Sequence record: SRR20825019_2588
DNA: 20,000 nucleotides
Reading direction: 5' to 3' (one strand)
Shown here: in pieces, positions 3,286 to 20,000 of the stretch
Position numbering within the stretch: the first letter of the stretch is position 1
Layout of the letters: each line of letters opens with the position of its first letter
The notes under the pieces: model-generated
Told to the model about the DNA's origin: nothing
The model's database searches: none
What the model saw: the letters and a program-made list of their open reading frames with translations, nothing else
Position numbers and translations under genes: made by a program

Positions 3286-3705
3286 ATGACGAATCCACAA
3301 TCCAGGGTAAAACTTCTTAAACCAAGCCAGGTCAATGCCTGTAAACAACTGGCAGAGTCTCAACTTAACGACAACAAGCGCGCTGCTGCGCTGCTCGCCA
3401 TTCACCAGGGCCAAACCCATGCACAGGCCGCCGAATCCAGTAGTCTTAGCATTGGTCAGGTCAAATATATTGTTACCCGATTTCGTAAACTGGGAATGAA
3501 GGCCCTGCATGTCTTGCAGGAAAGCCCTGACAATGCTGTCGAAACAGCGGTTGAAGCACCAGTGACCAAAGCCCGAAAGAAAAAAGACAAAGCAGATAAA
3601 AAAGCCAAGAAAGCAAAGAAAATCAAAAATAAAGAGAAAAAAACTAAGAAAAAAGATAAAAGCGATAAAAAAAAGAATAAGAAAAAGCTTAAGAACAAAA
3701 AATAA
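3286..3705 (+). CDS. Helix-turn-helix protein with a lysine-rich C-terminal tail
   Basis: RAAALLAIHQGQTHAQAAESSSLSIGQVKYIVTRFRKLGMKAL resembles a homeodomain-like HTH (IS630 N-terminus type). 28 of the last 45 residues are Lys. Confidence 0.7.
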   Translation: MTNPQSRVKLLKPSQVNACKQLAESQLNDNKRAAALLAIHQGQTHAQAAESSSLSIGQVKYIVTRFRKLGMKALHVLQESPDNAVETAVEAPVTKARKKKDKADKKAKKAKKIKNKEKKTKKKDKSDKKKNKKKLKNKK

Positions 3706-6454: not shown

Positions 6455-8038
6455 ATGAAGAAAAACTTACCCGTTACTGACAACGAAGTCACATTTGAAG
6501 AAGAACTCATTTCCACCACCGATCTGAAAGGTGCCATCACCGGATTTAATTCGGCGTTTGAGGATGTCAGTGGTTTTCCGGGCGATGAAATGCTTGGAAA
6601 AAACCACAATGTGATCCGTCATCCGGATATGCCACCGGCGGCCTTTGAAGACTTGTGGGATACCATCAAGGCTAAAGACCATTGGATGGGTATCGTCAAA
6701 AACCGCAGTAAGAACGGTGATTATTACTGGGTTGATGCCTATGTGACCCCGATTTTCAACGGTCAGCAAATCGTCGGTTATGAATCAGTGCGTATCAAGC
6801 CCAAAGCGGAATACGTTAAAAGGGCACAAACGCTTTACCAGCAAATCAATGCGGGCAAAAAGCCCCGGCTAGGTAGTTTCTTGAACCGCTTCGGGTTGAA
6901 GCATAAAAATGCGTTAAGCATGGGTGCTGTCGTTGTGCTGACCATGATAGCGACCCAACTGGATATGGTTAAGGCATTACCGTTTTTCTTACCCATGATC
7001 ATTCCATTACTGGTCGGTGCGGCAACCTACGGCCTTTTGACCAAATGGGTATTTGCCAGTCTGGACCGTGCATTGAAAGAAGCCCGTAAAGAAGTCGACA
7101 ATCCCTTGATGACCATGGTCTATACCGGTAACAACGATGAAATTGGCCAATTGACGCTGGTGAATAAACTGACTCAGGCTAAACTGAACACGGTGTTGGT
7201 AAGATTGAGAGATACGGCAACAAAAATCGACTCAGAAGCGCAGGACACTTTCAGTTCGCAACAGTCCATCATGGAGTCGATTCAGTCACAGGCATCCCAG
7301 ACAGACCAGGTTGCCACAGCAATGACAGAGATGACCTCAAGCATTCAGGAAGTCTCCAATAATGCCAGCAGAGCCGCGTCTACGGCATCAGAAGTGGATG
7401 ACCTGACAAAAGCCAGTGAGCGTAAAGCCTCAACGGCGGTCAGCAGCCTGGGTTCACTGGATGCTGCTTTTAGTGATATCAATAGCATTATTAGCGAACT
7501 GGAAGACGATTCCAGCGCGATTAATCCGATTATCGGTGTCATCAGTGATATTGCTGAGCAGACTAATTTACTGGCGTTGAACGCCGCCATCGAGGCAGCA
7601 CGGGCAGGGGAGTATGGGCGGGGCTTTGCCGTAGTGGCAGATGAGGTCCGCTCATTGGCAAGCCGAACCCAACAATCTACGCAGGAGATTTCAACACTTA
7701 TCCAGAAGCTGGATCAGGCGGTGGATAAGGTTGTTTCCGGGATGAAAAAGACACAGGAAACAGCCTCATCAAGCCGCGAAGATATTTCCGCATCGATTAG
7801 CTCTGTGTCCAGTATTAAGGATAAGGTTCAGGAACTGAATGATCTCAATACACTGATAGCGACTGCGGTTGAGGAGCAGAGTGCCGTCAGTGATGATATA
7901 AACCGCAATGTGGTACAGATCAGTAGTGAGGCTGAAAGCGTCGTATCCAATGCCAATCTGGTCAATACCAATGCGGAAAACCTCGCTGAAGAGTCATCCG
8001 CTTTGTTAAATATGATTCGGCGTTTCAGCCAGTCATAA
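6455..8038 (+). CDS. aer: Aer-type PAS-domain methyl-accepting chemotaxis (aerotaxis/energy taxis) receptor
   Basis: N-terminal PAS with [10 protein letters not shown] and [12 protein letters not shown], hydrophobic membrane anchor, and MCP signalling core [37 protein letters not shown]. Confidence 0.9.
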
Positions 8039-8050
8039 GTCTATAAAAAT

Positions 8051-8088
8051 AAAAAGGGGCTGAGACTTAGAAGTCTCAGCCCCTTTTT
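8051..8088. terminator. Bidirectional rho-independent terminator
   Basis: AAAAAGGGGCTGAGACTT-AG-AAGTCTCAGCCCCTTTTT is a perfect inverted repeat with A/T tails, between two convergent genes. Confidence 0.92.
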
Positions 8089-8100
8089 TAGGTTTCAATC

Positions 8101-8409
8101 TCAGCAGTTGCCTTTTTTGGCTTGTCCCGGCGGGCAGAAATGACCACCATGATGATCATCAATATAGACTTTACCGTGATGATTGTCATTACGATGCCCA
8201 TCTTCATCTGTATTGACTGCGACACCCGCAGCTGCACCGACAGCACCGCCAATCATGGCACCGTCCTTACCGCCAACTTCATTACCTACAGCCGCACCGA
8301 TGGCACCACCGATTCCGCCGCCGACAGCCGCGTCCAGTGTGGATGAGTCATCAGCCATAATCGGTGCTGAAAATAGACCCAAACTAAATAAAATCATCAT
8401 GAGCTTCAT
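8101..8409 (-). CDS. Small secreted glycine-zipper protein with a His-rich segment and a CPPGQAKKGNC C-terminus
   Basis: ATG at 8409 after a GGAGGT RBS (preferred over the ORF-track start at 8424). Signal peptide MKLMMILFSLGLFSAPIMA and GGGIGGAIGAAVG...GGAVGAAAG glycine zipper. Confidence 0.8.
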   Translation of the reverse strand: MKLMMILFSLGLFSAPIMADDSSTLDAAVGGGIGGAIGAAVGNEVGGKDGAMIGGAVGAAAGVAVNTDEDGHRNDNHHGKVYIDDHHGGHFCPPGQAKKGNC

Positions 8410-8529
8410 ACGAATTACCTCCACGTTAATGCTTTGAACTATGACAGTTTCAGCAAGCTAAGTCTGTGATGACTTTCAGATCACAAGCAAAGTGCTACCT
8501 AGAAGAGTTCTTTTTCAAACTTCAGGCAC

Positions 8530-8564
8530 AAAAAAAGCAGTTATCGCAAGGCGAATAACTACTT
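8530..8564 (-). terminator. Rho-independent terminator immediately downstream of the tRNA remnant
   Basis: Minus strand reads AAGTAGTTATTCGC-CTT-GCGATAACTGC-TTTTTTT: a hairpin with one bulge and one G-U pair, followed by a U tract. Confidence 0.7.
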
Positions 8565-8579
8565 AATTATATTTACTTT

Positions 8580-8614
8580 GGGAGGATTCAAACCTCTGAT
8601 CGCAAGGTTCCTAG
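8580..8614 (-). pseudogene. Degenerate 3' half of tRNA-Arg(ACG-type), probable att-site remnant
   Basis: Minus strand CTAGGAACCTTGCGATCAGAGGTTTGAATCCTCCC matches the E. coli tRNA-Arg(ACG) segment CTACGAACCGAGCGGTCGGAGGTTCGAATCCTCCC (recalled from memory) at 29/35. It covers the anticodon loop, variable loop and T arm. There is no D arm, no 5' half and no CCA. Confidence 0.7.
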
Positions 8615-8703
8615 AATCGTAGTTAATTTTCAAATAACTAACTATATCATGTGGTTACCATTGTATAACTTAACATTAAAAGTCATGGTTTTTACGAAAG
8701 AAA

Positions 8704-8723
8704 TAGTACTGAGATTAGTACTG
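8704..8723 (+). repeat. TAGTACTG direct repeat with 12-bp period (candidate integrase arm-type sites or operator)
   Basis: TAGTACTG at 8704-8711 and at 8716-8723, about 90 bp from the tRNA remnant. Confidence 0.5.
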
Positions 8724-8887
8724 TGCTATTCATACTGGCTCCTTCGAGCTTGATCAATGTCCATAGTTTAGTCAACGTTTAAGAATGAGCTTATATAAAC
8801 TTTCTTATTTTATATGGTGATATGCATATATTGTTAAGTTAATATATATGTTTTGACTATACAAGTGCTCACCAACGGGATTAAATA

Positions 8888-9427
8888 ATGATGACATTGT
8901 ATCTGGATCCAGAGGGACCGCTGATTACAGACATTGTGAGCCGACATCACAAAAAGTTAGTCATGATAGCTGCGAGAATTGTTGGGCATATTTATGCGGA
9001 AGAGGTAGTCCAAGATACTTGGCTTACCCTACTTCACGGATCAACACTGACTAAAGAGATTCATTCAATAGAAGCATGGCTATATAAAGTCGTCGTCAAT
9101 AAATCGATTAACAGGAAAAAAAGAGAGCAAAGAGCAGAGTCGTTGAATCATAACATTTTATACCCGGACAGAGCTCAGAGCAGTGATTCTGAAATTGCTG
9201 ACTTTGAGACAATGCCAGAAAACATTCTCTCATTGCTCCAGACCATTCAAAGCCTAGAGCAGGCATGGTTATCGCTCCCTGAAACCCAGAAGAAAGCAGC
9301 AGAAATGAGCTTCAGTAGAAATCTGAGTAACGAACAAATTGCATTGAACTTGGGTATCAGTCAATCAAATAGCAAAGTATCTATTCATAGGGCTAAGTCT
9401 AAACTGATAAACGCAGTAGCTAACTGA
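8888..9427 (+). CDS. ECF-type RNA polymerase sigma-70 factor
   Basis: Region 2 (AEEVVQDTW...IEAWLYKVVVNKSIN) and region 4 (LPETQK...SNEQIALNLGISQSNSKVSIHRAKSKL); 179 aa. Confidence 0.9.
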   Translation: MMTLYLDPEGPLITDIVSRHHKKLVMIAARIVGHIYAEEVVQDTWLTLLHGSTLTKEIHSIEAWLYKVVVNKSINRKKREQRAESLNHNILYPDRAQSSDSEIADFETMPENILSLLQTIQSLEQAWLSLPETQKKAAEMSFSRNLSNEQIALNLGISQSNSKVSIHRAKSKLINAVAN

Positions 9428-9449
9428 TTCCTTACTAAGTTTTCGTCAG

Positions 9450-11186
9450 TTAATGATTTGCTTTGGCAAAAGTTTCTACAGCATCTTTGGTCTGAAAAAA
9501 TACACGACCAGGTAGAAGCTCTTTGAAAAAATCTATTTTATCCAGCTTATCAAGGACTGGACCTTTGACTTCTGCCAGATTGAGTGAAATTCCTTTCCCT
9601 CTGAGGTCGTTGATCAACTGTTTCAAATAATTAATAGCGGTTGTATCAATGTAGCTTACGGATGAAAAAATAAGAACCACATGTTTTGCAGTGCTACGAC
9701 GTGACTCCCTTTCAATAAATTCTGAAATGTAATTTATATTTGCAAAGGTGATATTTTCATCGATTCTAATGAACAGTAGATCTTTCCATGTTTCGACACG
9801 ATGTCTTTTCACATTGCGAAAATGGTCGGTGTTTTTGATCCTGCCAACAACGGCAATATGCGGTCGACCAGCTCTTCTTAAGTAACAAAATATTGTTACT
9901 ACAACACCAAGTATGATGCCTTCTTCAATGCCTAATACCAAAACGCCAACGAGCGTGAGAATCTGACTGGCACCATCTGCTTTATCCTCTCTCCACACTG
10001 AGACTAATTTTCTGAATTCAATAAGTGGTAAGACTGCCAGGATGATAATGGCAGCTAAAATAGCTTTTGGAATGACTTCCAGAGTCTCACTGATGGTAAC
10101 CACAACAAAGGCAATGATGACCACAGCGATAAGCATGGCAACTTGACTTTGAGCGCCTGCAGAGTGGTTAACCATCGTGCGGCTAAATCCACCCGCAACA
10201 GGCATGCCTCCGGATATTGATGAGGCGATGTTGGCTGAACCAAGAGCGATAAGCTCCTGATTTGGCTTTATTTTTTCATTTCTTGTCGTGGCAATAACTT
10301 TTGCAATAGCGACACTTTCCACATAGGCGATAAGGCTGATAAAAAAAGCACTCGGAAACAGTGCATAAAGGTGTGATAGAGATACATTTAAAAAACTCAA
10401 ATCAATACTGGGTAATCCCTTTGGAATTGAACCCACTACGGCGACGTTATACTTACTGTCCAATGCGAAAATACTGACTAAGATTATCCCAAGAATTACT
10501 GAAATTAAGGGGGCTGATTTACTGATTCCAGTCCTGATTGATTTATTTATGCCTCTTTTCAACAGTAGATTGACTAGCGGTTTTCCCATAACAGCGACAG
10601 TGACAATGGCCAAGAGTCCAAGCCACATTTCATAACTATTGAAGCTTGCATATGAATGTTGAAGACAGGAAAAAGCATCGTCACAGGTGCCGACATGTAT
10701 GCCTAAGATACTTGGCAGTTGACTCCAGACAATAATGATAGCCGCACCTGAAGTAAAGCCAGAAAGCACAGGCTGACTGATATAGTGGACCAAGCTTCCC
10801 ATCTTGAAGGCAGACATGACACAGAGAATCAGTCCTCCTTCAAACGCGAGTAACATGGCGTTTTGTACTGGAGAGCCGAGTGCCATTATTTCAGGTGAAG
10901 ATAAAGCACTTGCAACCATAATAGCGGCTATTGAAACCGGCCCGACCGAGAGTATTCTGCTCGTTCCGAATAATGCATACATCACTGCGGGTAGAAGACT
11001 TGTATAGATCCCCACTTCTACCGGTAATCCTGCAAGTAATGCGTATGCCATTCCTTGAGGTATCAAAAGAATGGCAGTGATTATGCCTGCAAAAATATCA
11101 CTATTAAAAAGCTGCCAGTTATAAGAACTCAATGATTCTCTAAGGGGGACACTGGTCATCAATTTAATAAAAGAATTTTTTAACAT
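9450..11186 (-). CDS. sulP: SulP/SLC26 family anion transporter with C-terminal STAS domain
   Basis: DIFAGIITAILLIPQGMAYALLAGLP, GGFSRT, NQELIALG and STAS motifs (IRIDENITFAN, VSYIDTT). Confidence 0.93.
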   Translation of the reverse strand: MLKNSFIKLMTSVPLRESLSSYNWQLFNSDIFAGIITAILLIPQGMAYALLAGLPVEVGIYTSLLPAVMYALFGTSRILSVGPVSIAAIMVASALSSPEIMALGSPVQNAMLLAFEGGLILCVMSAFKMGSLVHYISQPVLSGFTSGAAIIIVWSQLPSILGIHVGTCDDAFSCLQHSYASFNSYEMWLGLLAIVTVAVMGKPLVNLLLKRGINKSIRTGISKSAPLISVILGIILVSIFALDSKYNVAVVGSIPKGLPSIDLSFLNVSLSHLYALFPSAFFISLIAYVESVAIAKVIATTRNEKIKPNQELIALGSANIASSISGGMPVAGGFSRTMVNHSAGAQSQVAMLIAVVIIAFVVVTISETLEVIPKAILAAIIILAVLPLIEFRKLVSVWREDKADGASQILTLVGVLVLGIEEGIILGVVVTIFCYLRRAGRPHIAVVGRIKNTDHFRNVKRHRVETWKDLLFIRIDENITFANINYISEFIERESRRSTAKHVVLIFSSVSYIDTTAINYLKQLINDLRGKGISLNLAEVKGPVLDKLDKIDFFKELLPGRVFFQTKDAVETFAKANH

Positions 11187-11253
11187 AGACTCATGTCTGA
11201 AATAGGGTTGTGAGGTTTACACAAAGGTCAGACCTGGGTTGAGAGTCCAAATC

Positions 11254-11272
11254 ATAACCAGAATATGGTTAT
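11254..11272. promoter_or_regulatory. Inverted repeat upstream of sulP (candidate regulator binding site)
   Basis: ATAACCA-GAATA-TGGTTAT, a perfect 7-5-7 inverted repeat in the very AT-rich 129-nt sqr-sulP gap. Confidence 0.45.
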
Positions 11273-11315
11273 ATTTTAATATACAAAATAAGTATATGTA
11301 TATATTTATATCAGA

Positions 11316-12569
11316 TTATGAGTCCAGGAATTTTTCAGCATAACTTGCTTTACTGGGTAGATCTATGCGACGTGCCTTGAGCATGATTTTCCAGTAAAGG
11401 AAAGGTAGCCCATAACGTTTAAACAGCATCCAAACGCGTCTATTTTTTCTGGGGTCCAGATAAGGAAAGGAGGGGGTGACCTCACCGCCATAGGAGAACT
11501 CTGCCATCATGACTGTGGAGCGGGAAGTCGTAAGCGGGCATGAACCATAACCTTTATAACTGGCTACAATATCGCGAGTGTTTATCAAATGCAGAAGATT
11601 ATTGACTAAAATCGGCACCTGTTTTCTGACAGCGGCAGCAGTCTTGGCGTTGGCTGTACCAATGACATCTCCAATGCCAAAGATATTGGGATAGACCTTA
11701 TGTTGTAATGTCCCTTGGTCAACACTCAACCAACCCGCATCGTCACTTAATGGACTCGTTTTGATGAAATTGGGTGCGCTCTGAGGGGGCGTCACATGAA
11801 TCATATCGAAATGTTTGGTCATGGTTGAGGATTCACCTTTCTCATCTTTCTTTTCGAAGACGGCTGTTTTTGAAGCCCCATTTATTTCAATTAAATTCCA
11901 GCCATAGTTGGTCTGAATTCCATACTTATCAATAACTTTTTCGAGCTCTTTAGCAAAAAAAGGCACGCCAAAAATAGCTGGGCCCGCATTGAAGAATTCA
12001 ATATCGATCTTCGACAAGATGCCTTTTTCCCGAAAATAATCAGCCGCTAAATACATGGCTTTCTGTGGAGCACCGGCACACTTGATTGGCATAGGTGGCT
12101 GTGTAAAAAGCGCTCTTGATCCAGCGGGTAGTTTTTTAGTTGTTTCCCAAGTGTATTCAACATGTTCGGGAGAATAGTTACAACAAACACCGTTTTTACC
12201 GAGTGTCTCAGAAAGGCCTTTAATTTTGTTTATATCAAGTTGTAAGCCGGGGCAAACAACCAGGTAGTCATAAGAGAGCTCACAGCCAGTATTGAGATAA
12301 ACCATATTGTCTTCTGGGTGAAACTCAACGGCATAATGTTTGAACCAGGTGACACTAGGAGGAATCAGCTTTTCTTCTTTTTTTTCTGTATTTTTAAACT
12401 TGAACAGCCCTGCGCCAACCAATGTAAATGCGGGTTGGTAATAATGTTTCGAAGAGGGTTCTATCAGGGCTACTGTTTGGCTGGGATCCATTTTCGCCAA
12501 GTCGTTCGCAACTGATATGCCTGCTGCACCCCCTCCGACGATAATCACGTTGTAATGACTATTTTTCAT
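11316..12569 (-). CDS. sqr: Sulfide:quinone oxidoreductase, type II (SqrB/SQOR-like)
   Basis: GGGAAG FAD-binding motif, HYYQPAFTLVG, catalytic Cys motifs PIKCAGAPQK and YGSCPL, AKTAAAVRKQ, AEFSY. Start set at ATG 12569 after the GGAGAG RBS. Confidence 0.92.
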   Translation of the reverse strand: MKNSHYNVIIVGGGAAGISVANDLAKMDPSQTVALIEPSSKHYYQPAFTLVGAGLFKFKNTEKKEEKLIPPSVTWFKHYAVEFHPEDNMVYLNTGCELSYDYLVVCPGLQLDINKIKGLSETLGKNGVCCNYSPEHVEYTWETTKKLPAGSRALFTQPPMPIKCAGAPQKAMYLAADYFREKGILSKIDIEFFNAGPAIFGVPFFAKELEKVIDKYGIQTNYGWNLIEINGASKTAVFEKKDEKGESSTMTKHFDMIHVTPPQSAPNFIKTSPLSDDAGWLSVDQGTLQHKVYPNIFGIGDVIGTANAKTAAAVRKQVPILVNNLLHLINTRDIVASYKGYGSCPLTTSRSTVMMAEFSYGGEVTPSFPYLDPRKNRRVWMLFKRYGLPFLYWKIMLKARRIDLPSKASYAEKFLDS

Positions 12570-12597
12570 TTTCTCTCTCCGGGCTTTGATTATCTTT

Positions 12598-12999
12598 TTA
12601 ATTTGATAGGGCTTTCCAGGCTTCATATCCACCTGCCATGGACATGATGTTGCTGAATCCCATATGTTGAAGGCTTGCTGCAGCTAATGCTGATCGACCA
12701 CCCGAGCGGCAATACAAAATAATCTTGGTGTCAGGGTTGTTTACTTCTTGCAGATCAGAAATTTTGAACTCCAGTACACCTCTGGGAATTAACTTTGCCC
12801 CCGTGATTGAACCTTGCTCAACCTCACTCTCTTCTCGAATATCAATCAAGACTACATCGTCGTTTTGAACCAATTCTTTGGTCTCCTCCGGACTGATTTC
12901 AGTAATTTGAGGTTTGACCTGCGCAACCAGTTGTGGGGCTGTCAAACGTTCTTTTGATTGTGATTCATTGTCTGTATTGTCGTTGTGAATGCTATTCAT
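12598..12999 (-). CDS. Single-domain rhodanese (sulfurtransferase)
   Basis: LIDIRE, YCRSGGRS active-site loop, MAGGYEAW. Start set at ATG 12999 after the GGAGAG RBS. Confidence 0.92.
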   Translation of the reverse strand: MNSIHNDNTDNESQSKERLTAPQLVAQVKPQITEISPEETKELVQNDDVVLIDIREESEVEQGSITGAKLIPRGVLEFKISDLQEVNNPDTKIILYCRSGGRSALAAASLQHMGFSNIMSMAGGYEAWKALSN

Positions 13000-13377
13000 T
13001 TCTCTCTCCAAGTCATACTTATATTGTTAATTTGACAGTGTTTTCCAGGCTTCATAGCCACCGGCCATGGACATCACATTCTTGAAACCCATATTCTGAA
13101 GGCTCGCTGCAGCCAGGGCTGAACGACCACCGGAACGGCAATACAAGATGAGCTTTGTATCGGGGTTATCTATTGCATCCAGATCTGAGATCTTGAATTC
13201 CAGCACGCCTCTGGGGATGAATTCAGCGCCTGAGATTGAACCCTGCTCGACTTCACTTTCTTCTCGAATATCAATTAAAACGACGTCCTGGTTCTGAATT
13301 AATTTACTTGTTTCTTCAGGGCTTATTTCAGTGATTTGGGGTTTGGTTTGCGCCACAATTTGAGGTGCAGTCAAACG
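12598..13377 (-). repeat. Tandem duplication of the rhodanese domain (13027-13377 and 12598-12948)
   Basis: Ungapped alignment from RLTAPQ to the stop codon gives 98/116 identical residues by hand count. Confidence 0.9.
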
Positions 13378-14115
13378 CTGTTGTGATTTCGCTACGTCTC
13401 TGGGTTCGGAAGACTGGAAGGTTTCTTCTTCATCTACACCACAGTATCGGTTGGCGGGAACCGCTATATCAATAAGCTTGGGTTTAGGTAAATTGAGATT
13501 ATCCATCAATTCAATGAACTCCTCTCTCGATTTACCAGCTAATCTCGGATTGATCCTTTTTTCCTGCCCGATACTGCTGACGCTGTGACCTTTATAGTCA
13601 TGTCCCGGAAAGACAAGTGTCTCGTCTGGCAGGCTAAATAAACGTTGTGTAATGCTGTCGTAAAGTGTTCCCGCATCGCCTCCCTGGAAATCTGTTCTTC
13701 CGCAGCCATTGATCAGTAAAGCATCACCAGTAAAAACTTTATCTCGCCAATGAAAGCTCATGCTTCCTTTGGTGTGACCTGGAGTCGCGATAGCGGTGAT
13801 TGTTTCCTTGTCTCCAAGATGGAATGCATCATGATCATGAATTTGTTTATCTGCATTTTTCGCTTCACAAGCGTGACCTACACCTGTTTGGCAACCCAGT
13901 TGCTGCCTGAGAATGCCACTGGCCGTTATATGATCTGCATGGACGTGTGTTTCCAGTGAATACTTAAGATTGAGTCCGTATTCGTCCAGAATCGTCTTAT
14001 AAATTTCAATCTGACTTTTAACTGGATCTATCAAAGCGGTCTCACGAGAGGAGGTGTCAGCAATCAGATAAGTGTAGGTGCTACTCTCATCGTCGAACAT
14101 TTGTTTGAAGAGCAT
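13027..14115 (-). CDS. pdo: Persulfide dioxygenase (ETHE1-like MBL fold) fused to a C-terminal rhodanese
   Basis: SSTYTYL, ETHVHADHIT, TPGHT, GCGRTDFQ, PGHDY and VPANRYCG motifs, followed by a rhodanese domain with CRSGGRS. Confidence 0.93.
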   Translation of the reverse strand: MLFKQMFDDESSTYTYLIADTSSRETALIDPVKSQIEIYKTILDEYGLNLKYSLETHVHADHITASGILRQQLGCQTGVGHACEAKNADKQIHDHDAFHLGDKETITAIATPGHTKGSMSFHWRDKVFTGDALLINGCGRTDFQGGDAGTLYDSITQRLFSLPDETLVFPGHDYKGHSVSSIGQEKRINPRLAGKSREEFIELMDNLNLPKPKLIDIAVPANRYCGVDEEETFQSSEPRDVAKSQQRLTAPQIVAQTKPQITEISPEETSKLIQNQDVVLIDIREESEVEQGSISGAEFIPRGVLEFKISDLDAIDNPDTKLILYCRSGGRSALAAASLQNMGFKNVMSMAGGYEAWKTLSN

Positions 14116-14139
14116 GGCGCTTTTCCTAATAGTCAGTGT

Positions 14140-14637
14140 TTAAAAATTGCCCGAGTTTGGCATCAGAGCATTCATTTCATCTACGTCCCATGATTTTGCC
14201 CCAATGGCCCTGTGAGTTATATTTCCCTCAGGATCAACCAGGTAGCTTATAGGGAGGGCTCTTACATCCCAGTTTTTCAGGCTGGTATCAGGATCGCTCA
14301 CGATGGGAAAGGTGATGCCAAACTTCTTCACGAACGCCGCAGCCTCTTCGGTGTAAGGTCCTGCATGAATACCAATGATTTCCAGATCCGTATTGATGTT
14401 TTCATACAGTTCCTGCATTTCTGGAAATTCCTTGATGCAGGGTGAGCACCAGTACGCCCAAAAGTTGACCAGGACGTACTTACCTTTGAAATCGCTCAGA
14501 CTTAAGTTTTCACCAGCCGGTGTATCAAGAGTAAAGTCATTGGCTGACCTGACCGGGGTTAGGGGTGACATCAAGTCATCCGCGTTTGCAGTAAAACATG
14601 ACGTAATCAATAGTGTTGAGAGAATAAATTTCAGCAT
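14140..14637 (-). CDS. Exported TlpA/ResA-family thiol-disulfide oxidoreductase
   Basis: Signal peptide, LVNFWAYWCSPCIKEFP (CxxC) and ALPISYLVDPEG (cis-Pro loop). The start overlaps the upstream stop (TAATG). Confidence 0.9.
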   Translation of the reverse strand: MLKFILSTLLITSCFTANADDLMSPLTPVRSANDFTLDTPAGENLSLSDFKGKYVLVNFWAYWCSPCIKEFPEMQELYENINTDLEIIGIHAGPYTEEAAAFVKKFGITFPIVSDPDTSLKNWDVRALPISYLVDPEGNITHRAIGAKSWDVDEMNALMPNSGNF

Positions 14638-16655
14638 TATTTTGTATCCTGTTGTTCTTTGGAATAGTCACCAATTGGCGTAGCAAACGAATCAGAAATG
14701 ATTTCAGCTACATTGTCACCATTTAGTGATTTCAAAAACTCGACCAGATCTTCTACTTCAATGGGAGATAGGTTAAGCGGATTGATAAGTTCAGACTGCG
14801 TTTCATTTTCGAAACCACCCTCGTTGTAAAAGTCGACAACTTCCTCCAGGCTGGCTAATGAACCGTCATGCATATAGGGCGCTGTCAGAGCTACATTACG
14901 CAGGGTAGGGGTGCGGTACTTCCACCTGTCATCAGGGTCTTGCGTAATTTCGTAGAGTCCTAAGTCTCCAAGTGGTTGGTGGCCCACAGAGTCAATGATT
15001 TCTTTTTTCACGTTGAGGTACCGACCGGGGGCAACCTGAACCCTGGTTTTTTCGGGTTCTTTCTTCATAGCGCGGTGCCAGCCTATCCCTGTGTTATGAA
15101 GGCTATTATCGGTAAAGAGTGAATGGTCACTGGCTACGGTGTGACAGTTGATGCACTGCGCTTTACCGGTAAATAGTTCGAAGCCACGAACAGCAGAATC
15201 GGACATGACCTCTTTTTCATTACCAAAATGCCAGCGATCAAATTTAGAGTTACCAGAAACAAGCGTTCTTTCATAGGATGCAATCGCAGCTGGGATCGTC
15301 TCTATACCAGCCTCTTTGCCATCGAATGCTTCTTCAAACAATCCCGCATAATCATTTAAAGCTTTGATTTTTTCGATGACAGAAGAGAAAGATGGATTTG
15401 CCATCTCATTGCTTGCAAGCATGGGTTGCCATACTTGAAGTTCTAAAGAGGTTTCACGGCCGTCATGAAAAACTTTCTCCAGATAGGCAGAGTTATAGAT
15501 AGTTGGTGCGTTTCTACGAACCGAACGTCCCTCAAATCCTACGGCAGTTTGGAGCTCATGATTAGTAAAGCCTTGTTCTGGTACATGACACATTGCACAT
15601 GACTGCGTGTTGTTGAGTGACAGCCTGCGGTCAAAAAAAAGCTTCTTACCTAATTGAACTTTGGCCTCACTGATAGGGTTATCTTCAGGGATCGGTACGG
15701 GGGGTAAACCCAGAGGCGGGTTCTCAACGAAACGAAGTAAATTAGTCTCTTTACCTTCGCGACTTTTCAGGCTTAGTGAGCTTGTAATATAGTCCTTGCT
15801 TTCGTAACCAGCTTTAGAGTCACCAGCACCAATTCTGATGTTCTGGGAATGATGGCTTTCTTTAGCACTTTTTTCATTGACACCATATTCCATCATGAGT
15901 GTTTTTAAGTCATTAATGATGATGTCTGGATGGAGAAAGTCCACGCTGTAGATATTACGTATTCTCAGATCGGGATCGATGAGAAATACACGCAATATAT
16001 GCGAGAAATTTCCCGTCATTCTGGTATCAGCGTCTGTTTTGGTAATGACAGACTGATTATAAGCGTCCAGGATTGGAGCCAACTCCTTTTCTGAGCGAGT
16101 GGTTAGATATTTCCAATCGACTGTTTTGGAATCTTTGTCATGATGCATGTTGTGATCACCATGATTCATATCATGGCCATCATGATTTGAATGATCCATG
16201 TGTTGATCATGTACACCGCTTTCCAGTTTTTTTAAAACTTCAGGCGTGTCGTAGTTCGGATCAAAACTCATACTAATCATTTGGAGGTTTTCAGCTAATA
16301 CGGGATCTTGTTTAGCAATATCTCTGATTCTGCTGAAAACAATATGTGATAACGGGCAGCCGTTTAAATCATCACATCGGGTGTACATAAAATTCAGCAG
16401 GGTATATTTCCCCCTCAAAATTTCATGATAGGAAACTGGCTCACTCTGAGTGTTGATTGCTTTGGCATTTTTGGCATAGCCCAATACGGGTAGCTTATAG
16501 CTACCCGCATCAGGTGCCTCAAAGTCTAATTCACCATATCCGGGGGCGGGCAATATTGTCTCCGGAATTGGAGGAGCATCAAATGAGAAGACATGACTCG
16601 ATAATAATAAGAAGCTGAAAGATACTATTAGCGAGGTCATATTTTGATGTTTCAT
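14637..16655 (-). CDS. SCO1/SenC copper chaperone - MauG-like diheme cytochrome c fusion (probable MTO maturation protein)
   Basis: Signal peptide. SCO domain (FMYTRCDDLNGCP, SFDPNYDTPEVL, H in FSHILRVFLIDP) with a His/Met-rich insert. Two CxxCH motifs (CAMCH 15585-15599, CINCH 15141-15155), RNAPT, TPTLRNVALTAPYMHDGS. Directly downstream of mtoX. Confidence 0.9.
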   Translation of the reverse strand: MKHQNMTSLIVSFSFLLLSSHVFSFDAPPIPETILPAPGYGELDFEAPDAGSYKLPVLGYAKNAKAINTQSEPVSYHEILRGKYTLLNFMYTRCDDLNGCPLSHIVFSRIRDIAKQDPVLAENLQMISMSFDPNYDTPEVLKKLESGVHDQHMDHSNHDGHDMNHGDHNMHHDKDSKTVDWKYLTTRSEKELAPILDAYNQSVITKTDADTRMTGNFSHILRVFLIDPDLRIRNIYSVDFLHPDIIINDLKTLMMEYGVNEKSAKESHHSQNIRIGAGDSKAGYESKDYITSSLSLKSREGKETNLLRFVENPPLGLPPVPIPEDNPISEAKVQLGKKLFFDRRLSLNNTQSCAMCHVPEQGFTNHELQTAVGFEGRSVRRNAPTIYNSAYLEKVFHDGRETSLELQVWQPMLASNEMANPSFSSVIEKIKALNDYAGLFEEAFDGKEAGIETIPAAIASYERTLVSGNSKFDRWHFGNEKEVMSDSAVRGFELFTGKAQCINCHTVASDHSLFTDNSLHNTGIGWHRAMKKEPEKTRVQVAPGRYLNVKKEIIDSVGHQPLGDLGLYEITQDPDDRWKYRTPTLRNVALTAPYMHDGSLASLEEVVDFYNEGGFENETQSELINPLNLSPIEVEDLVEFLKSLNGDNVAEIISDSFATPIGDYSKEQQDTK

Positions 16656-16683
16656 GATGAATTATCCTTTACCGTTTTAACTT

Positions 16684-18126
16684 CTATAAAGTTTTATCAA
16701 TTGCTTCTAAAGCGTGCTCTTTAATTGCTTCCTTGGCTTTTTCTTCACGGTTGCTAACCGGAACAATCGGCGCTTCTTTACCGTAAAGAGAATATGAACC
16801 AAAACGCATTTGGTGAGCTCTTCCGAGTTTTTCTTTATAGAAATCGATCTTGAATTGTTCTGTCATCGTTTTAGTGTCGCGGTCCCAGTGCATCAATTTC
16901 ATGTACTGAACGTCTTTCTCACCTTTGTGATCCCAATTAGCCAGCAAAGAGCTTGTGTAATACAGTCGAGTGCCATCCCAGCTTGATGAAACCATATTCA
17001 CTTGCTTGTCTATAAATTGCTCATGCATAAGCGTTGGGTTATAGGGATCAGTGATGTCGTAGCCACGAGTCATACCGTCCATAAATGTATTCACCCAAAT
17101 CGTGGAGTCATCACTTGAAATAGAGAAGTCAACCGGCAGCGGAACGTCTGAAGGATTGGCAACAGTGCCAACAACTTCTGCTTTCCAGCCACCTTTACCA
17201 TCTTCAATAATTAAGATGATTTCAGAGGTTAAAGCTGTAATTGTGAAGCAGTAATTATTTTCAGCTCCCCAGGCACATCTGAGTTCAAGAGGTGCACCTT
17301 CAGCATCAAGCACCTGTTTAGGCTTACGTGTATGTAAGTCCCAAACAACAATGGTGTTACCGAAACGTTTCATGGCTTCAGGGTCTTTCAGCATCTTGCC
17401 GAAATCCATCATGTAGTTTGTCCAGCCGGTAAATGATGAGGTGAACATCGCATTACGACGGGGCAAAACCTGGATGTCATAGCCATAACCATCAGCATAT
17501 TGTCCGGTTTTCTCTGCACCTTGGAGGTTGTCATCGGTAGGGATCCAATAGGTATCTACGTACTCACCGTCGTTAGTGTATTCAACCAGTGCAGTTCTAC
17601 CACCATGATCCTGGTTATTAGATAAAGCTGTCCAAAGCATGCGGCCAGGCACTGCATAAGGTGTATGCGGACCAACAACACCACCGGTTTTGCTGACAAA
17701 GTCATCAATCGTTTTTACAAGTTTGGGTTCAGCTGGATTGGTATGAACATCAAATATGAAAATCTTGCTGCTATCCAGACTGCCACCCCAAAGATATTTA
17801 CGGTCATCAGTAAAACCAGAGTGGTGAGCTTCATTTCTGCCACCGACAGATGTAACGTGGCGAACCTTACCGTAATCTTTAGCAGCTGGATTGACCGAGA
17901 CAGTGACCAGTTTATCCTGGCCATCACCAAGTCCCTCCACACCCAATGTCCAGACATAAACAAAATCTTCCTGACCTTGAATTTTTGCCATGTAGGGTGA
18001 CATACAGGTTTCATCGGCATGGACTGCTACGGGGGCTCCTATTATTAGTGCGGCACTAACAAAAACCGGACTTAAGAACTTCAAGACCGGTTTAGTCTTC
18101 ATTTTTATCACTTCATTAAATTTCAT
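16684..18126 (-). CDS. mtoX: Methanethiol oxidase (SBP56/SELENBP1 family), periplasmic
   Basis: Signal peptide then DETCMSPY; EAHH, GPHT and RAHQMRFG His motifs; SSFTGW and SSLLANWD Trp motifs 163 residues apart; linked to an SCO-MauG gene. Start set at ATG 18126 after an AGGAGAG RBS. Confidence 0.93.
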   Translation of the reverse strand: MKFNEVIKMKTKPVLKFLSPVFVSAALIIGAPVAVHADETCMSPYMAKIQGQEDFVYVWTLGVEGLGDGQDKLVTVSVNPAAKDYGKVRHVTSVGGRNEAHHSGFTDDRKYLWGGSLDSSKIFIFDVHTNPAEPKLVKTIDDFVSKTGGVVGPHTPYAVPGRMLWTALSNNQDHGGRTALVEYTNDGEYVDTYWIPTDDNLQGAEKTGQYADGYGYDIQVLPRRNAMFTSSFTGWTNYMMDFGKMLKDPEAMKRFGNTIVVWDLHTRKPKQVLDAEGAPLELRCAWGAENNYCFTITALTSEIILIIEDGKGGWKAEVVGTVANPSDVPLPVDFSISSDDSTIWVNTFMDGMTRGYDITDPYNPTLMHEQFIDKQVNMVSSSWDGTRLYYTSSLLANWDHKGEKDVQYMKLMHWDRDTKTMTEQFKIDFYKEKLGRAHQMRFGSYSLYGKEAPIVPVSNREEKAKEAIKEHALEAIDKTL

Positions 18127-18329
18127 TTTTCTCTCCTGGCTGTAATTACTTACGAAGCCTCTAAAAGTTGAACAACGCATCAATAGAAAAACCTTATTCC
18201 ATTAGTCATTTAAATATTGGCTGCAAATTTATTCATAAACTGCAGGTTACGTTGAAAATGTGGGAACCAGTTCGTTAGCCAAAAATAGAAATTCATCTTC
18301 TAGTTCAACGTGACCATTACGTAAGAATA

Positions 18330-18345
18330 AGGAATAAACGTGCCA
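18330..18345 (-). promoter_or_regulatory. Imperfect sigma54-like promoter facing mtoX
   Basis: Minus strand TGGCACGTTTATTCCT. The -24 element is perfect and the spacing is correct, but -12 reads TTCC instead of TTGC. Confidence 0.3.
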
Positions 18346-18730
18346 AAATTGGCTAAATTAAAACACCTCCATATATTCACCACGTGCATATAGTTATAGC
18401 CCAGTGATATAAAAAAGGCAACTCCTAGGTCTAGAATTTTTTTTAAGTAACATCTCCTCCGTTATGCTCTTTGCTTATAAGGGTTCAAGTGCATGATTCT
18501 ATTATTATTAAAAGGGGTTTAGATGTGTTTTAAAGCTGATGCAGAATTTCTCGGTTGCTAAATTCTTTGGACTGATTTTATAAAAATGATTTGTCGGCGC
18601 ATTGCCCGAAAAGAATATGTTTGATGTTTTTATGGGATAAGTATATAACTATAAAGAATATGTATGTATAAAAAGTGTGCAGAACATTTTTTGTGCAAGG
18701 AATATGAATTCTCCCATCGGAGGAGATTGT

Positions 18731-19705
18731 ATGAAGTTACAGCAAATAAAATATCTTCTGGGTATCGTCAAGAATGACTTGAACGTATCAAAAACGGCGG
18801 AGAGCTTTTATACCTCACAGCCAGGCGTCAGCAGACAAATAAGGCTTTTGGAAGAGGAATTGAAAGTAGAGATCTTTGAAAGGCATGGAAGGTTGCTGAC
18901 AGGTATTACGCCTATCGGAAATAAAATTTTGAAAATGGCTGCTGAGGTCGCGGATACGATAAATAGCATCAAGTCTGTGGCAGAAGAATATGCCAATGAA
19001 ACACACGGTTCATTGGTTATTGCTACGACTCATACACAAGCCCGCTACGTGCTGCCCAAAACAATAATGAGTTTCACCAATAAACATAGTTCTGTCTCGT
19101 TTCATCTGAAACAGGGGAATCCCCATCAAGTTAGTGAAATGGTTTCCAATGGAATAGTCGACTTATCTATTGCCTCAGAGTCAATGCAAGATTTCAGTAA
19201 CCTGGTCACCTTACCCTGTTATTCATGGAATCGGGTTGTGCTGGTCAAGAAAAAGCATCCACTGATAGAGGAACTGCCACTTACTCTCGAAAAATTATCC
19301 AAATACCCTTTGGTTACCTATGAGAGTGGATTTACAGGGCGATATCAATTAGATAAGGCGTTCGAGCTAGCCAGTATCAAGCCTAATATCATGCTCACCG
19401 CTTCAGATGCAGACATCATAAAAGCTTACGTAAAAATGGACTTGGGAGTAGGGGTGATTGCGAGCGTTGCTTATGACCCAAATGATGATGCAGACCTTGT
19501 TGCTGTCGATGCAAGTCACTTGTTTGATAACTGTGTAACAAAAATAGCCCTCAGAAGAGGTGCGGTGCTGAGGGGGTATGTGTATGACTTTATTGAATTA
19601 TTTGCGACACACCTCACAAAAGAGGTCGTTGACTCAATACTGACTACAAATAATTCGACGATATGTTCTGGTTATGTTGATTCATTATCAATACCTCATT
19701 TTTAA
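18731..19705 (+). CDS. cysB: CysB/Cbl-family LysR regulator, divergent from mtoX
   Basis: MKLQQIKY...LNVS...YTSQPGVSRQIRLLEEEL, IATTHTQARYVLP, LPCYSWNR, FTGR, DADIIKAYV. 324 aa from ATG 18731 after a GGAGGAG RBS. Confidence 0.88.
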   Translation: MKLQQIKYLLGIVKNDLNVSKTAESFYTSQPGVSRQIRLLEEELKVEIFERHGRLLTGITPIGNKILKMAAEVADTINSIKSVAEEYANETHGSLVIATTHTQARYVLPKTIMSFTNKHSSVSFHLKQGNPHQVSEMVSNGIVDLSIASESMQDFSNLVTLPCYSWNRVVLVKKKHPLIEELPLTLEKLSKYPLVTYESGFTGRYQLDKAFELASIKPNIMLTASDADIIKAYVKMDLGVGVIASVAYDPNDDADLVAVDASHLFDNCVTKIALRRGAVLRGYVYDFIELFATHLTKEVVDSILTTNNSTICSGYVDSLSIPHF

Positions 19706-19892
19706 GTAAAGTCCCCGGGATTATCGCTGTTTGCTGAACACCTCCCTGCAATAAATTTCGTTTCAATGAGGGGGGGATTACTTCCTGCTTAATCGAGCTG
19801 GTTTGAGCTTCAAGCTTATTTTTACTTGAAATAACAGGTGGCTTCTTTCAAAAACTCCATATTTTTCAAAACTTAAAAAGAGATTAACAACG

Positions 19893-20000
19893 ATGGATGA
19901 AATAGTAACACCCTGTTTAGCCGACATAGGGTTAGTTGGTCTAGCTGTGATGGGTCAGAACCTGGTCCTCAATATGAATGACAAGGGCTTCAGGGTCTCG
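19893..20000 (+). CDS. gnd: 6-phosphogluconate dehydrogenase (decarboxylating), 5' fragment
   Basis: Not in the ORF track. My translation is [36 protein letters not shown], the GLAVMGxNL Rossmann start typical of Gnd. Only 36 codons are visible. Confidence 0.85.

Follow-up and report, generated by a model that had tools for sequence, protein, structure and literature searches.

Two mto clusters are known from Methylophaga thiooxydans (Kröber and Schäfer 2019; PMC6548844). In both, mtoX, the gene for methanethiol oxidase (MTO), is followed by a SCO1/MauG fusion gene, a TlpA-like gene, and genes for persulfide dioxygenase (PDO), SqrB and SulP. With the help of signal-peptide analysis, the authors argued for a periplasmic location of MTO, SCO/MauG and TlpA and a cytoplasmic one of PDO. 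They proposed that PDO-derived sulfite and polysulfide yield thiosulfate in this strain, which lacks soxAB and converts the sulfur onward to tetrathionate via enzymes encoded outside the cluster. The products of MTO itself are in dispute: the purified native enzyme gave formaldehyde, H2S and H2O2 (PMC5739008), whereas three MTOs gave sulfane sulfur in a later study (PMC10936201). Sulfide:quinone oxidoreductase (SQR), PDO and rhodanese together oxidise sulfide to sulfite and thiosulfate (PMC9163753).

Here we analyse a 20,000-nt stretch of sequence record SRR20825019_2588 (the window), in which a sequence-only reading had noticed a cassette for methanethiol (MT) oxidation. We consider it likely that this is a new intact Methylophaga mto cluster with the proposed route from MT to oxidised sulfur, carried as cargo of an island targeted to tRNA-Arg; the host would be Methylophaga-like, and its closest relatives lack the cluster.

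Gene order and content of the cluster

Seven minus-strand open reading frames (ORFs) and a divergent LysR-type gene lie where the sequence-only reading had placed them (Table 1). Pfam and NCBIfam profiles agree with the family names it had given (MtoX, SCO1-SenC with CCP_MauG, TlpA, PDO-rhodanese, rhodanese, SQR, SulP and CysB); these scans covered the 16 main window ORFs and part of the ORFs of related islands. The intergenic gaps from mtoX to sulP are 28, -1 (a TAATG overlap), 24, 27, 28 and 129 nt, which confirms the spacing of less than 30 nt reported for the first six genes. Starts were chosen by purine-rich leaders (mtoX 18126, rhd 12999, sqr 12569), and the 27- and 28-nt spacers depend on these alternative starts. 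The longest-ORF starts of mtoX, rhd, sqr and cysB were rejected for their poorer leaders and one 35-nt overlap.

The order on this one strand (mtoX, sco1/mauG fusion, tlpA, pdo, an extra rhd, sqr, sulP) is that of the Methylophaga mto cluster, and the proteins are 57–85% identical to those of M. thiooxydans. Judged by order and identity, the locus is a new intact copy of a cluster already known. The sequence-only reading had seen its novelty in the joining of all these modules into a single unit. That claim fails, because the coupling is already in print for orthologous clusters: the same order and route have been published twice for M. thiooxydans (PMC6548844). The coupling itself, of periplasmic MT oxidation to SQR, PDO and rhodanese, is well supported. 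What the window adds is one more Methylophaga lineage predicted to oxidise MT, by a pathway whose logic had been published.

A metagenome contig (L126), which may be related to the window's source, is 99.2% identical to the window over 11,222 nt, and two sequencing runs from two studies, X6 and X8, yield contigs that cover the region at near identity. Because all of these agree with the window, the assembly is supported. They also span the duplicated rhodanese gene described below, so we rejected an assembly artefact as its source. A scan for promoters and terminators was uninformative (27 and 9 sites against 26.9 and 10.0 expected), no terminal repeats bracketing the cassette were found, and an Rfam scan of positions 8000–20000 gave three chance hits. 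Three features were absent from the sequence-only reading: a gene for an extracytoplasmic function (ECF) sigma factor, a tRNA remnant, and the origin of the free rhodanese by duplication.

Table 1 Positions of features in the window and in related loci (L and G numbers are our handles for loci and genomes)
Feature	Position	Strand	Remarks
Decayed 3' half of tRNA-Arg(ACG), from the anticodon loop	8582..8614	-	27/33 nt identical to positions 33-65 of the 77-nt tRNA of G017
ECF-type sigma factor, convergent with sulP	8888..9427	+	PF04542 + PF08281
sulP, SLC26/SulP anion transporter with STAS domain	9450..11186	-	PF00916 + PF01740; TIGR00815 395.9 vs cut-off 380.45
sqr (SqrB), mitochondrial/type II-like SQR, 417 aa	11316..12569	-	Pyr_redox_2; human SQOR match
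rhd, free rhodanese, 133 aa	12598..12999	-	Tandem copy of PDO C-terminal rhodanese domain; repeat D1, spacing 429 nt, 78%
pdo, PDO-rhodanese fusion, 362 aa	13027..14115	-	PF00753 (Lactamase_B) + PF00581 (Rhodanese)
tlpA, TlpA/ResA-like exported thioredoxin, WCSPC	14140..14637	-	PF00578 (AhpC-TSA); NF002854 below cut-off; 1-nt overlap with sco-mauG
SCO1/SenC-MauG fusion, 672 aa	14637..16655	-	PF02630 + PF03150; two CxxCH haem motifs, CAMCH at 353, CINCH at 501
mtoX, MTO (SBP56 family), signal-peptide-like N-terminus	16684..18126	-	NF052453; 85% identity to M. thiooxydans MtoX
Divergent mtoX-cysB spacer, AT-rich	18127..18730		33% GC; three TTATA-N9-TATAA-like palindromes at 18394, 18462, 18630
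cysB, CysB-family LysR regulator	18731..19705	+	NF009326 445.4 vs cut-off 436
gnd 5' end (6-phosphogluconate dehydrogenase)	19893..20000	+	Translation resembles the enzyme of L001:7799-9265, also upstream of mtoX
mto island in G003	C1 about 1912575-1945761		Insert at tRNA-Arg(CCG)
mto island in G039	C18 about 237210-270078		Insert at tRNA-Arg(CCG)
AlkB/XylM-like oxygenase gene	L001:1179-2357	-	
AlkB/XylM-like oxygenase gene	L177:11056-12234	-	
AlkB/XylM-like oxygenase gene	L178:10705-11883	+	
AlkB/XylM-like oxygenase gene	L002:4245-5426	-	

The encoded proteins retain their functional motifs

MtoX scored 699.6 bits against its NCBIfam equivalog profile (cut-off 650). H101, H102, H154 and H438 align with His residues of 2ece and, in a comparison made by spacing, match the conserved His89, 90, 140 and 412 of Hyphomicrobium VS. 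The protein also has a Cys motif, TCMSPYM (C41). Its tree places it in a clade with the MtoX of L001, L002, L017 and L110 (support 98/94). The SCO domain of the SCO-MauG fusion has a His-rich insert (residues 149–168), possibly a copper store. Export signals were judged from hydropathy alone, as the maximum 11-residue mean at the N-terminus: MtoX reached 2.56, SCO-MauG 2.46 and TlpA 2.14, compared with 0.44 for PDO. PDO and the rhodanese lack an N-terminal hydrophobic stretch, and the one in SQR is its FAD-binding GGGAAG motif.

The PDO-rhodanese fusion matches BpPRF (5ve3) over its full length (E 3.2e-75) and ETHE1 (4chl) at E 9.7e-65. Its HVHADH, PGHT, GCGRTD and CRSGGRS motifs are intact, comprising the metallo-beta-lactamase metal motif and a C-terminal rhodanese with its active Cys. 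The best solved relative of the SQR is human SQOR (E 1.6e-101, against 3.7e-14 for the type I enzyme 3hyv and 7e-20 for flavocytochrome c). Its KCAGAPQK (C164) and GSCP (C344) motifs align with the two equivalent Cys motifs of SQOR; we take C164 and C344 to be the catalytic pair.

The free rhodanese is identical to the rhodanese domain of PDO at 99 of 121 residues, with the CRSGGRS loop intact. Over 116 codons the copies show 48 synonymous and 18 non-synonymous codon differences, and this excess of synonymous changes, together with the intact active loop, suggests that both are under purifying selection. A rhodanese tree did not resolve the two copies, which we pair on the strength of their mutual identity (83%, against 57–67% to others). 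The free gene is missing from all six other full clusters, each of which gives a single rhodanese match. Since fused and free rhodaneses are both common in sqr-pdo operons (PMC9163753), we regard it as a local variant, one that most likely adds capacity.

Distribution of the cluster

The sequence-only reading had also suggested a survey of synteny around mtoX. We took the best 80 of 477 candidate loci in a genome collection and counted downstream contents in the 45 loci with at least 8 kb downstream. The linkage of mtoX to pdo, sqr and sulP was found in five of these (L001, L002, L017, L024 and L036; all titled Methylophaga, two from one genome). Part of the set was present in 11 loci, with sqr in 11/11 and pdo in 4/11, and none of it in 29. 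A sixth other full cluster lies in genome G039. Of 37 genomes in the genus, 3 carried mtoX, and of 83 in the family, 15 did.

The expectation that thiosulfate would be formed without Sox genes agrees with the lack of soxAB in M. thiooxydans (PMC6548844) and does not extend to all loci: in L002 the gene after sulP is soxB, and in L033, a locus with mtoX, sqr and sulP, mtoX is preceded by soxC, Y, Z, A and B (six of the seven ORFs scanned received a Sox name). Genes for OsmC-like and metallo-beta-lactamase-fold proteins recur upstream of mtoX (L024:3679-8343, L036:6720-9931 and L033:7858-9513; the profile-scanned ORFs are those of L024), in L024 with a FadL-type porin and a lipoamide dehydrogenase.

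A proposed route from methanethiol to oxidised sulfur

In the proposed route, exported MtoX would be matured by SCO-MauG, through copper loading and formation of a tryptophan tryptophylquinone-type cofactor, and probably by TlpA. In a step shown for homologues, it would convert CH3SH to formaldehyde plus either H2S and H2O2 (Eyice et al. 2018) or sulfane sulfur (Cao et al. 2024). By analogy with other bacteria, SQR, using quinone as the oxidant, would turn sulfide into polysulfide or glutathione persulfide (GSSH), PDO would oxidise the persulfide to sulfite, and the fused and free rhodaneses would shuttle sulfane sulfur, keeping it low and allowing thiosulfate to form. The window's enzymes would thus act in series, and SulP might move a sulfur oxyanion. 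The first six genes would probably share one transcript with polar decay, and sulP is probably uncoupled from it.

The sequence-only reading had predicted that these genes would be induced together, and the published data for M. thiooxydans bear this out in part. Transcripts on dimethyl sulfide (DMS) versus methanol are given in Table S6 of PMC6548844. They stand at 17350/37 and 4064/20 for mtoX, 1428/15 and 1543/16 for sco-mauG, 454/12 for tlpA and 1097/17 for a ‘Rhodanese-PDO fusion’. As protein, SqrB (MDMS009_274, filed as NADH dehydrogenase) rose 18.33-fold on DMS. Table S6 places mtoX 768 on the plus strand and mtoX 211 on the minus strand, the reverse of their orientation in L024 and L001. 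The two rows may therefore be swapped; both are strongly induced either way.

Other observations weigh against the window's genes forming one co-induced pathway. The sulP transcript was not induced by DMS (55 versus 78), with SulP protein at 1.67-fold. Neither sqrB nor the cluster-2 pdo, sqrB and sulP appear in the published transcript table, and a search of the nine supplementary tables by tag number found only SqrB 274 and the annotation of the cluster-2 TlpA. The strongly induced SQR transcript is that of an unlinked gene, sqrA (388 versus 11). The authors call co-regulation from one promoter unclear, and SignalP gave equivocal values for the SqrB orthologues (12% and 55%) (PMC6548844). None of the sequencing runs on record as RNA contains the stretch; X12, a run presumed to be RNA, yielded short contigs that are uninformative about expression.

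A variant that does not exclude this route, and which we rate as possible if rather doubtful, has MtoX releasing sulfane sulfur directly. PDO-rhodanese and the extra rhodanese would then be the main protective sink, with SQR salvaging the H2S that arises from reduction by glutathione, and the cluster would serve chiefly detoxification instead of an ordered sulfide-to-thiosulfate pipeline. It draws on the three MTOs that gave sulfane sulfur and on a Ruegeria pdo deletion mutant, which consumed 0.18 mM MT against 0.53 mM in the wild type and was hurt in MT use more than a mutant lacking sqr/fccAB. The lower MT consumption on loss of pdo fits the serial route as well. That study also placed a reactive Cys in the motif TCQSPYM (PMC10936201), which reads TCMSPYM in the window. 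Rhodaneses, moreover, minimise sulfane accumulation and raise PDO activity (PMC9163753). Yet the native purified enzyme gave formaldehyde, H2S and H2O2 (PMC5739008), and the in vitro enzyme of 2024 had been expressed in E. coli (PMC10936201). The rise of SqrB on DMS, and the presence of sqr in every partial mtoX locus when pdo is in only four, likewise speak against this variant.

The cluster as probable cargo of a larger island at a tRNA-Arg gene

Five relatives (G017, G031, G018, G034 and G036) match the left part of the window at 75–85%, and in all of them the similarity stops at 8614. They lack mtoX, the PDO fusion and the cluster's CysB. Four of them (G017, G031, G034 and G036) have an intact tRNA-Arg(ACG) at the matching site; in G017, G034 and G036 the core genes next to it are presumably lysC, alaS and recA. 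The window itself retains only a decayed half of this tRNA; ARAGORN reported no tRNA in the window, and the half was not among the Rfam hits. Half a tRNA gene at a border is an established sign of integration. The GC content is 49.1% to the left of 8614 and 41.8% to the right, and the low-GC region extends past 20000. The window thus combines a partial tRNA at one border, an empty site in relatives and a shift in composition, and we read the tRNA half as the probable remnant of an attachment site and left border of an island.

Comparison of these genomes points to tRNA-Arg(ACG) as a hotspot for insertions in the host lineage. A tRNA-half remnant (L107:3001-3103) is also present in G018, there with different low-GC DNA, and G031 (L106:342-3374) and G036 (L108:2779-9394) carry different three-gene inserts on the other side of the tRNA. 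The clusters of G003 and G039 start behind another gene, tRNA-Arg(CCG), and four of five tested genomes match only up to the tRNA end. Measured against the empty sites of G009 and of G040 and G029, the inserts there are ~33.2 kb (G003) and ~32.9 kb (G039) long. They hold the mto cluster, two glutathione S-transferase-like genes, a PAS histidine kinase with a response-regulator-like ORF, an acyl-CoA dehydrogenase, a MetX-like hydrolase and an oxygenase module.

From the tRNA remnant, the GC shift, the empty sites and the ~33-kb related islands, we conclude that the cluster is probably old island cargo and that the mobile unit is larger than the cassette. The cassette had been called both self-contained and mobile. 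The first description does not hold, given the lack of an integrase in the window, a low-GC region that runs past its end and the size of the related islands; the second stands for the tRNA-bounded island and not for the cassette as a mobile unit of its own.

Three points count against the island. The scan of the 16 main window ORFs gave no integrase. The right border lies beyond the window, and one metagenome scan made for it returned a single match, L126, which ends inside gnd ~95 nt past the window. Gene absences in the comparison genomes are soft, because many of those genomes are incomplete. The cluster might alternatively be ancestral in Methylophaga and lost in most lineages, the border at 8614 being a chromosomal rearrangement at the tRNA. 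The missing integrase, the decay of the tRNA remnant (27/33), the presence of gnd upstream of mtoX in L001 too, and cluster proteins (57–85%) no closer to M. thiooxydans than a flank protein (77%) would all suit this history. We nevertheless think it improbable, given the sharp GC step at the border, cluster neighbours that differ in each genome, the clean empty sites for the G003 and G039 clusters at another tRNA, and the fact that in G018 the same half of tRNA-Arg(ACG) borders another low-GC insert.

As the preferred reading, the island would explain why DMS and MT use is patchy in the genus, with mtoX in so few of its genomes, and taxonomy alone will not predict it. A literature search whose coverage leaves most subscription papers outside found no report of an island carrying mtoX in Methylophaga, and ‘genomic island’ does not occur in the available portion of PMC6548844. 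The gnd gene at the window's end is probably an extra copy inside the island: M. thiooxydans (G001) has two near-identical copies, and five close relatives have one each. It possibly provides extra formaldehyde-oxidation or NADPH capacity.

Left of the border, positions 477–2453 hold divergent genes for AmmeMemoRadiSam system protein B and a radical SAM enzyme, which belong to the host backbone and bear no relation to the mto cluster. A 139-aa ORF with a Lys-rich tail at 3286–3705 (+), in DNA common to close relatives, gave no Pfam or NCBIfam match.

SulP and the divergent CysB paralogue

The window CysB is about 68–69% identical to that of M. thiooxydans cluster 2, compared with 40–50% for all other matches in 37 genomes. 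In a tree of 33 rows, from which L126 was excluded, the two form a two-member clade with support 100/100 and long branches. A second CysB-like clade is found near mtoX in five loci. The window protein retains T100, T102, Q103, W166 and T202 of enterobacterial CysB, with T149 replaced by S; we take these six positions to be the effector site. The DMS-induced cysB of Table S6 (tag 120, 669/11; PMC6548844) probably belongs to the second clade, judging only from its tag range and strand.

All three matches to a TTATA-N9-TATAA-like palindrome in the 20-kb window fall in the mtoX-cysB spacer, and at least two did so in 1.3% of local shuffles, for a motif chosen from these same data. The palindrome was not enriched upstream of mtoX generally (5 of 78 loci against 6.6 expected; 3 of 81 loci were excluded for having less than 500 nt upstream). 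We therefore offer the three sites as weak candidates for LysR-type boxes, picked post hoc. Going by its position and tree, this divergent paralogue is the probable regulator of the mtoX promoter, which makes the cassette's ‘own regulator’ of the sequence-only reading plausible. CysB has no occurrence in the main text of PMC6548844, and no literature on a CysB regulator of MT oxidation in Methylophaga was found within the same search coverage. The cluster-specific paralogue is thus a concrete candidate regulator of MT oxidation, a point left open in the 2019 paper.

In all six other full clusters, and in L033, L045 and L050, sulP is the next gene after sqr. The sqr-sulP spacers of seven clusters showed no common alignment or hairpin. 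A somewhat unlikely alternative is that SulP and CysB serve sulfur assimilation, SulP importing sulfate or thiosulfate and the CysB paralogue sensing sulfur status, so that both are mere neighbours of the MT operon. The flat sulP transcript on DMS, the 129-nt spacer before sulP, the adenosine phosphosulfate (APS) kinase gene after sulP in cluster 1 and the five of six CysB residues kept all favour it. So does the BpPRF rhodanese, which runs from thiosulfate to GSSH to sulfite (quoted in PMC9163753). What argues for a role in MT oxidation instead is the constant place of sulP after sqr, the 1.67-fold increase of SulP protein on DMS (PMC6548844), and a host lineage that already has a core CysB, the window-type paralogue being present only beside mtoX.

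The ECF sigma gene is kept convergent on sulP in L017, L024 and L111, with 37–40% identity to the L017 and L024 copies. No anti-sigma gene was seen adjoining it. The legend of Fig. S2 in the 2019 paper names a sigma70 gene unannotated until then (PMC6548844).

An AlkB-like oxygenase module in related islands

Outside the window, a gene for an AlkB/XylM-like di-iron oxygenase (PF00487; AlkB 8sbb, E 4.3e-28) is present in the G003 and G039 islands and beside cluster 1 of M. thiooxydans. Its partners are a ferredoxin reductase, globins, a FadL-type porin and a NorQ/NorD-like pair. Among the 83 family genomes, 13 have both the AlkB-like gene and mtoX, one the AlkB-like gene only, two mtoX only and 67 neither. 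The two genes therefore occur together in 13 of the 16 genomes holding either, with a Fisher p of 2.7e-12 that is inflated by kinship. Among the DMS-induced entries of Table S6 are a desaturase (1359/10), an NAD-binding oxidoreductase (618/12) and a globin (601/21) (PMC6548844), and these tags may correspond to ORFs of the module. The desaturase was read by the authors as lipid repair, and earlier assays had found no DMS monooxygenase activity (PMC6548844). Among the papers that literature searches returned, none proposes this protein as the DMS enzyme.

We put the protein forward as a candidate for the enzyme that converts DMS to MT (DMS monooxygenase). Tentatively, and with the odds rather against it, the cluster could be the edge of a mobile island for DMS catabolism, which inserts at different tRNA-Arg genes of Methylophaga and makes DMS degraders of plain methylotrophs. 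In such an island CysB would have been re-purposed to switch on MT oxidation, and the part beyond gnd would carry the AlkB/XylM-like module as DMS-to-MT enzyme, as in G003, in G039 and beside cluster 1.

Comparison with known systems

The nearest counterparts of the window are the two mto clusters of M. thiooxydans, which have the same gene order and 57–85% protein identity. With cluster 2 (L024) the window has in common a divergent CysB and a sigma factor (40%) convergent on sulP, and with cluster 1 (L001) the gnd gene upstream of mtoX. Compared with both, the window alone has a free rhodanese from a tandem duplication and sits behind a tRNA-Arg(ACG) remnant. Cluster 1 ends with cysC and a gene for a DNA-repair methyltransferase, and the window has neither. 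The mtoX-SCO1/senC-mauG operon of Eyice et al. (2018; PMC5739008) resembles the window in the four conserved His of MtoX and in the SCO and MauG genes downstream, which are fused here as that paper notes for some genomes. The window extends this operon by tlpA, the PDO-rhodanese gene, rhd, sqr and sulP, and its regulator is CysB-like, in contrast to the IclR type of Roseobacters. Finally, the heterotrophic sqr-pdo(-rhodanese) operons (454 operons in 441 genomes; Ran et al. 2022, PMC9163753) and BpPRF combine SQR and PDO with fused and dissociated rhodanese, as the window does. In the window, unlike in those operons, the set sits downstream of a periplasmic MT oxidase, and the free rhodanese arose as a duplicate of the fused one.

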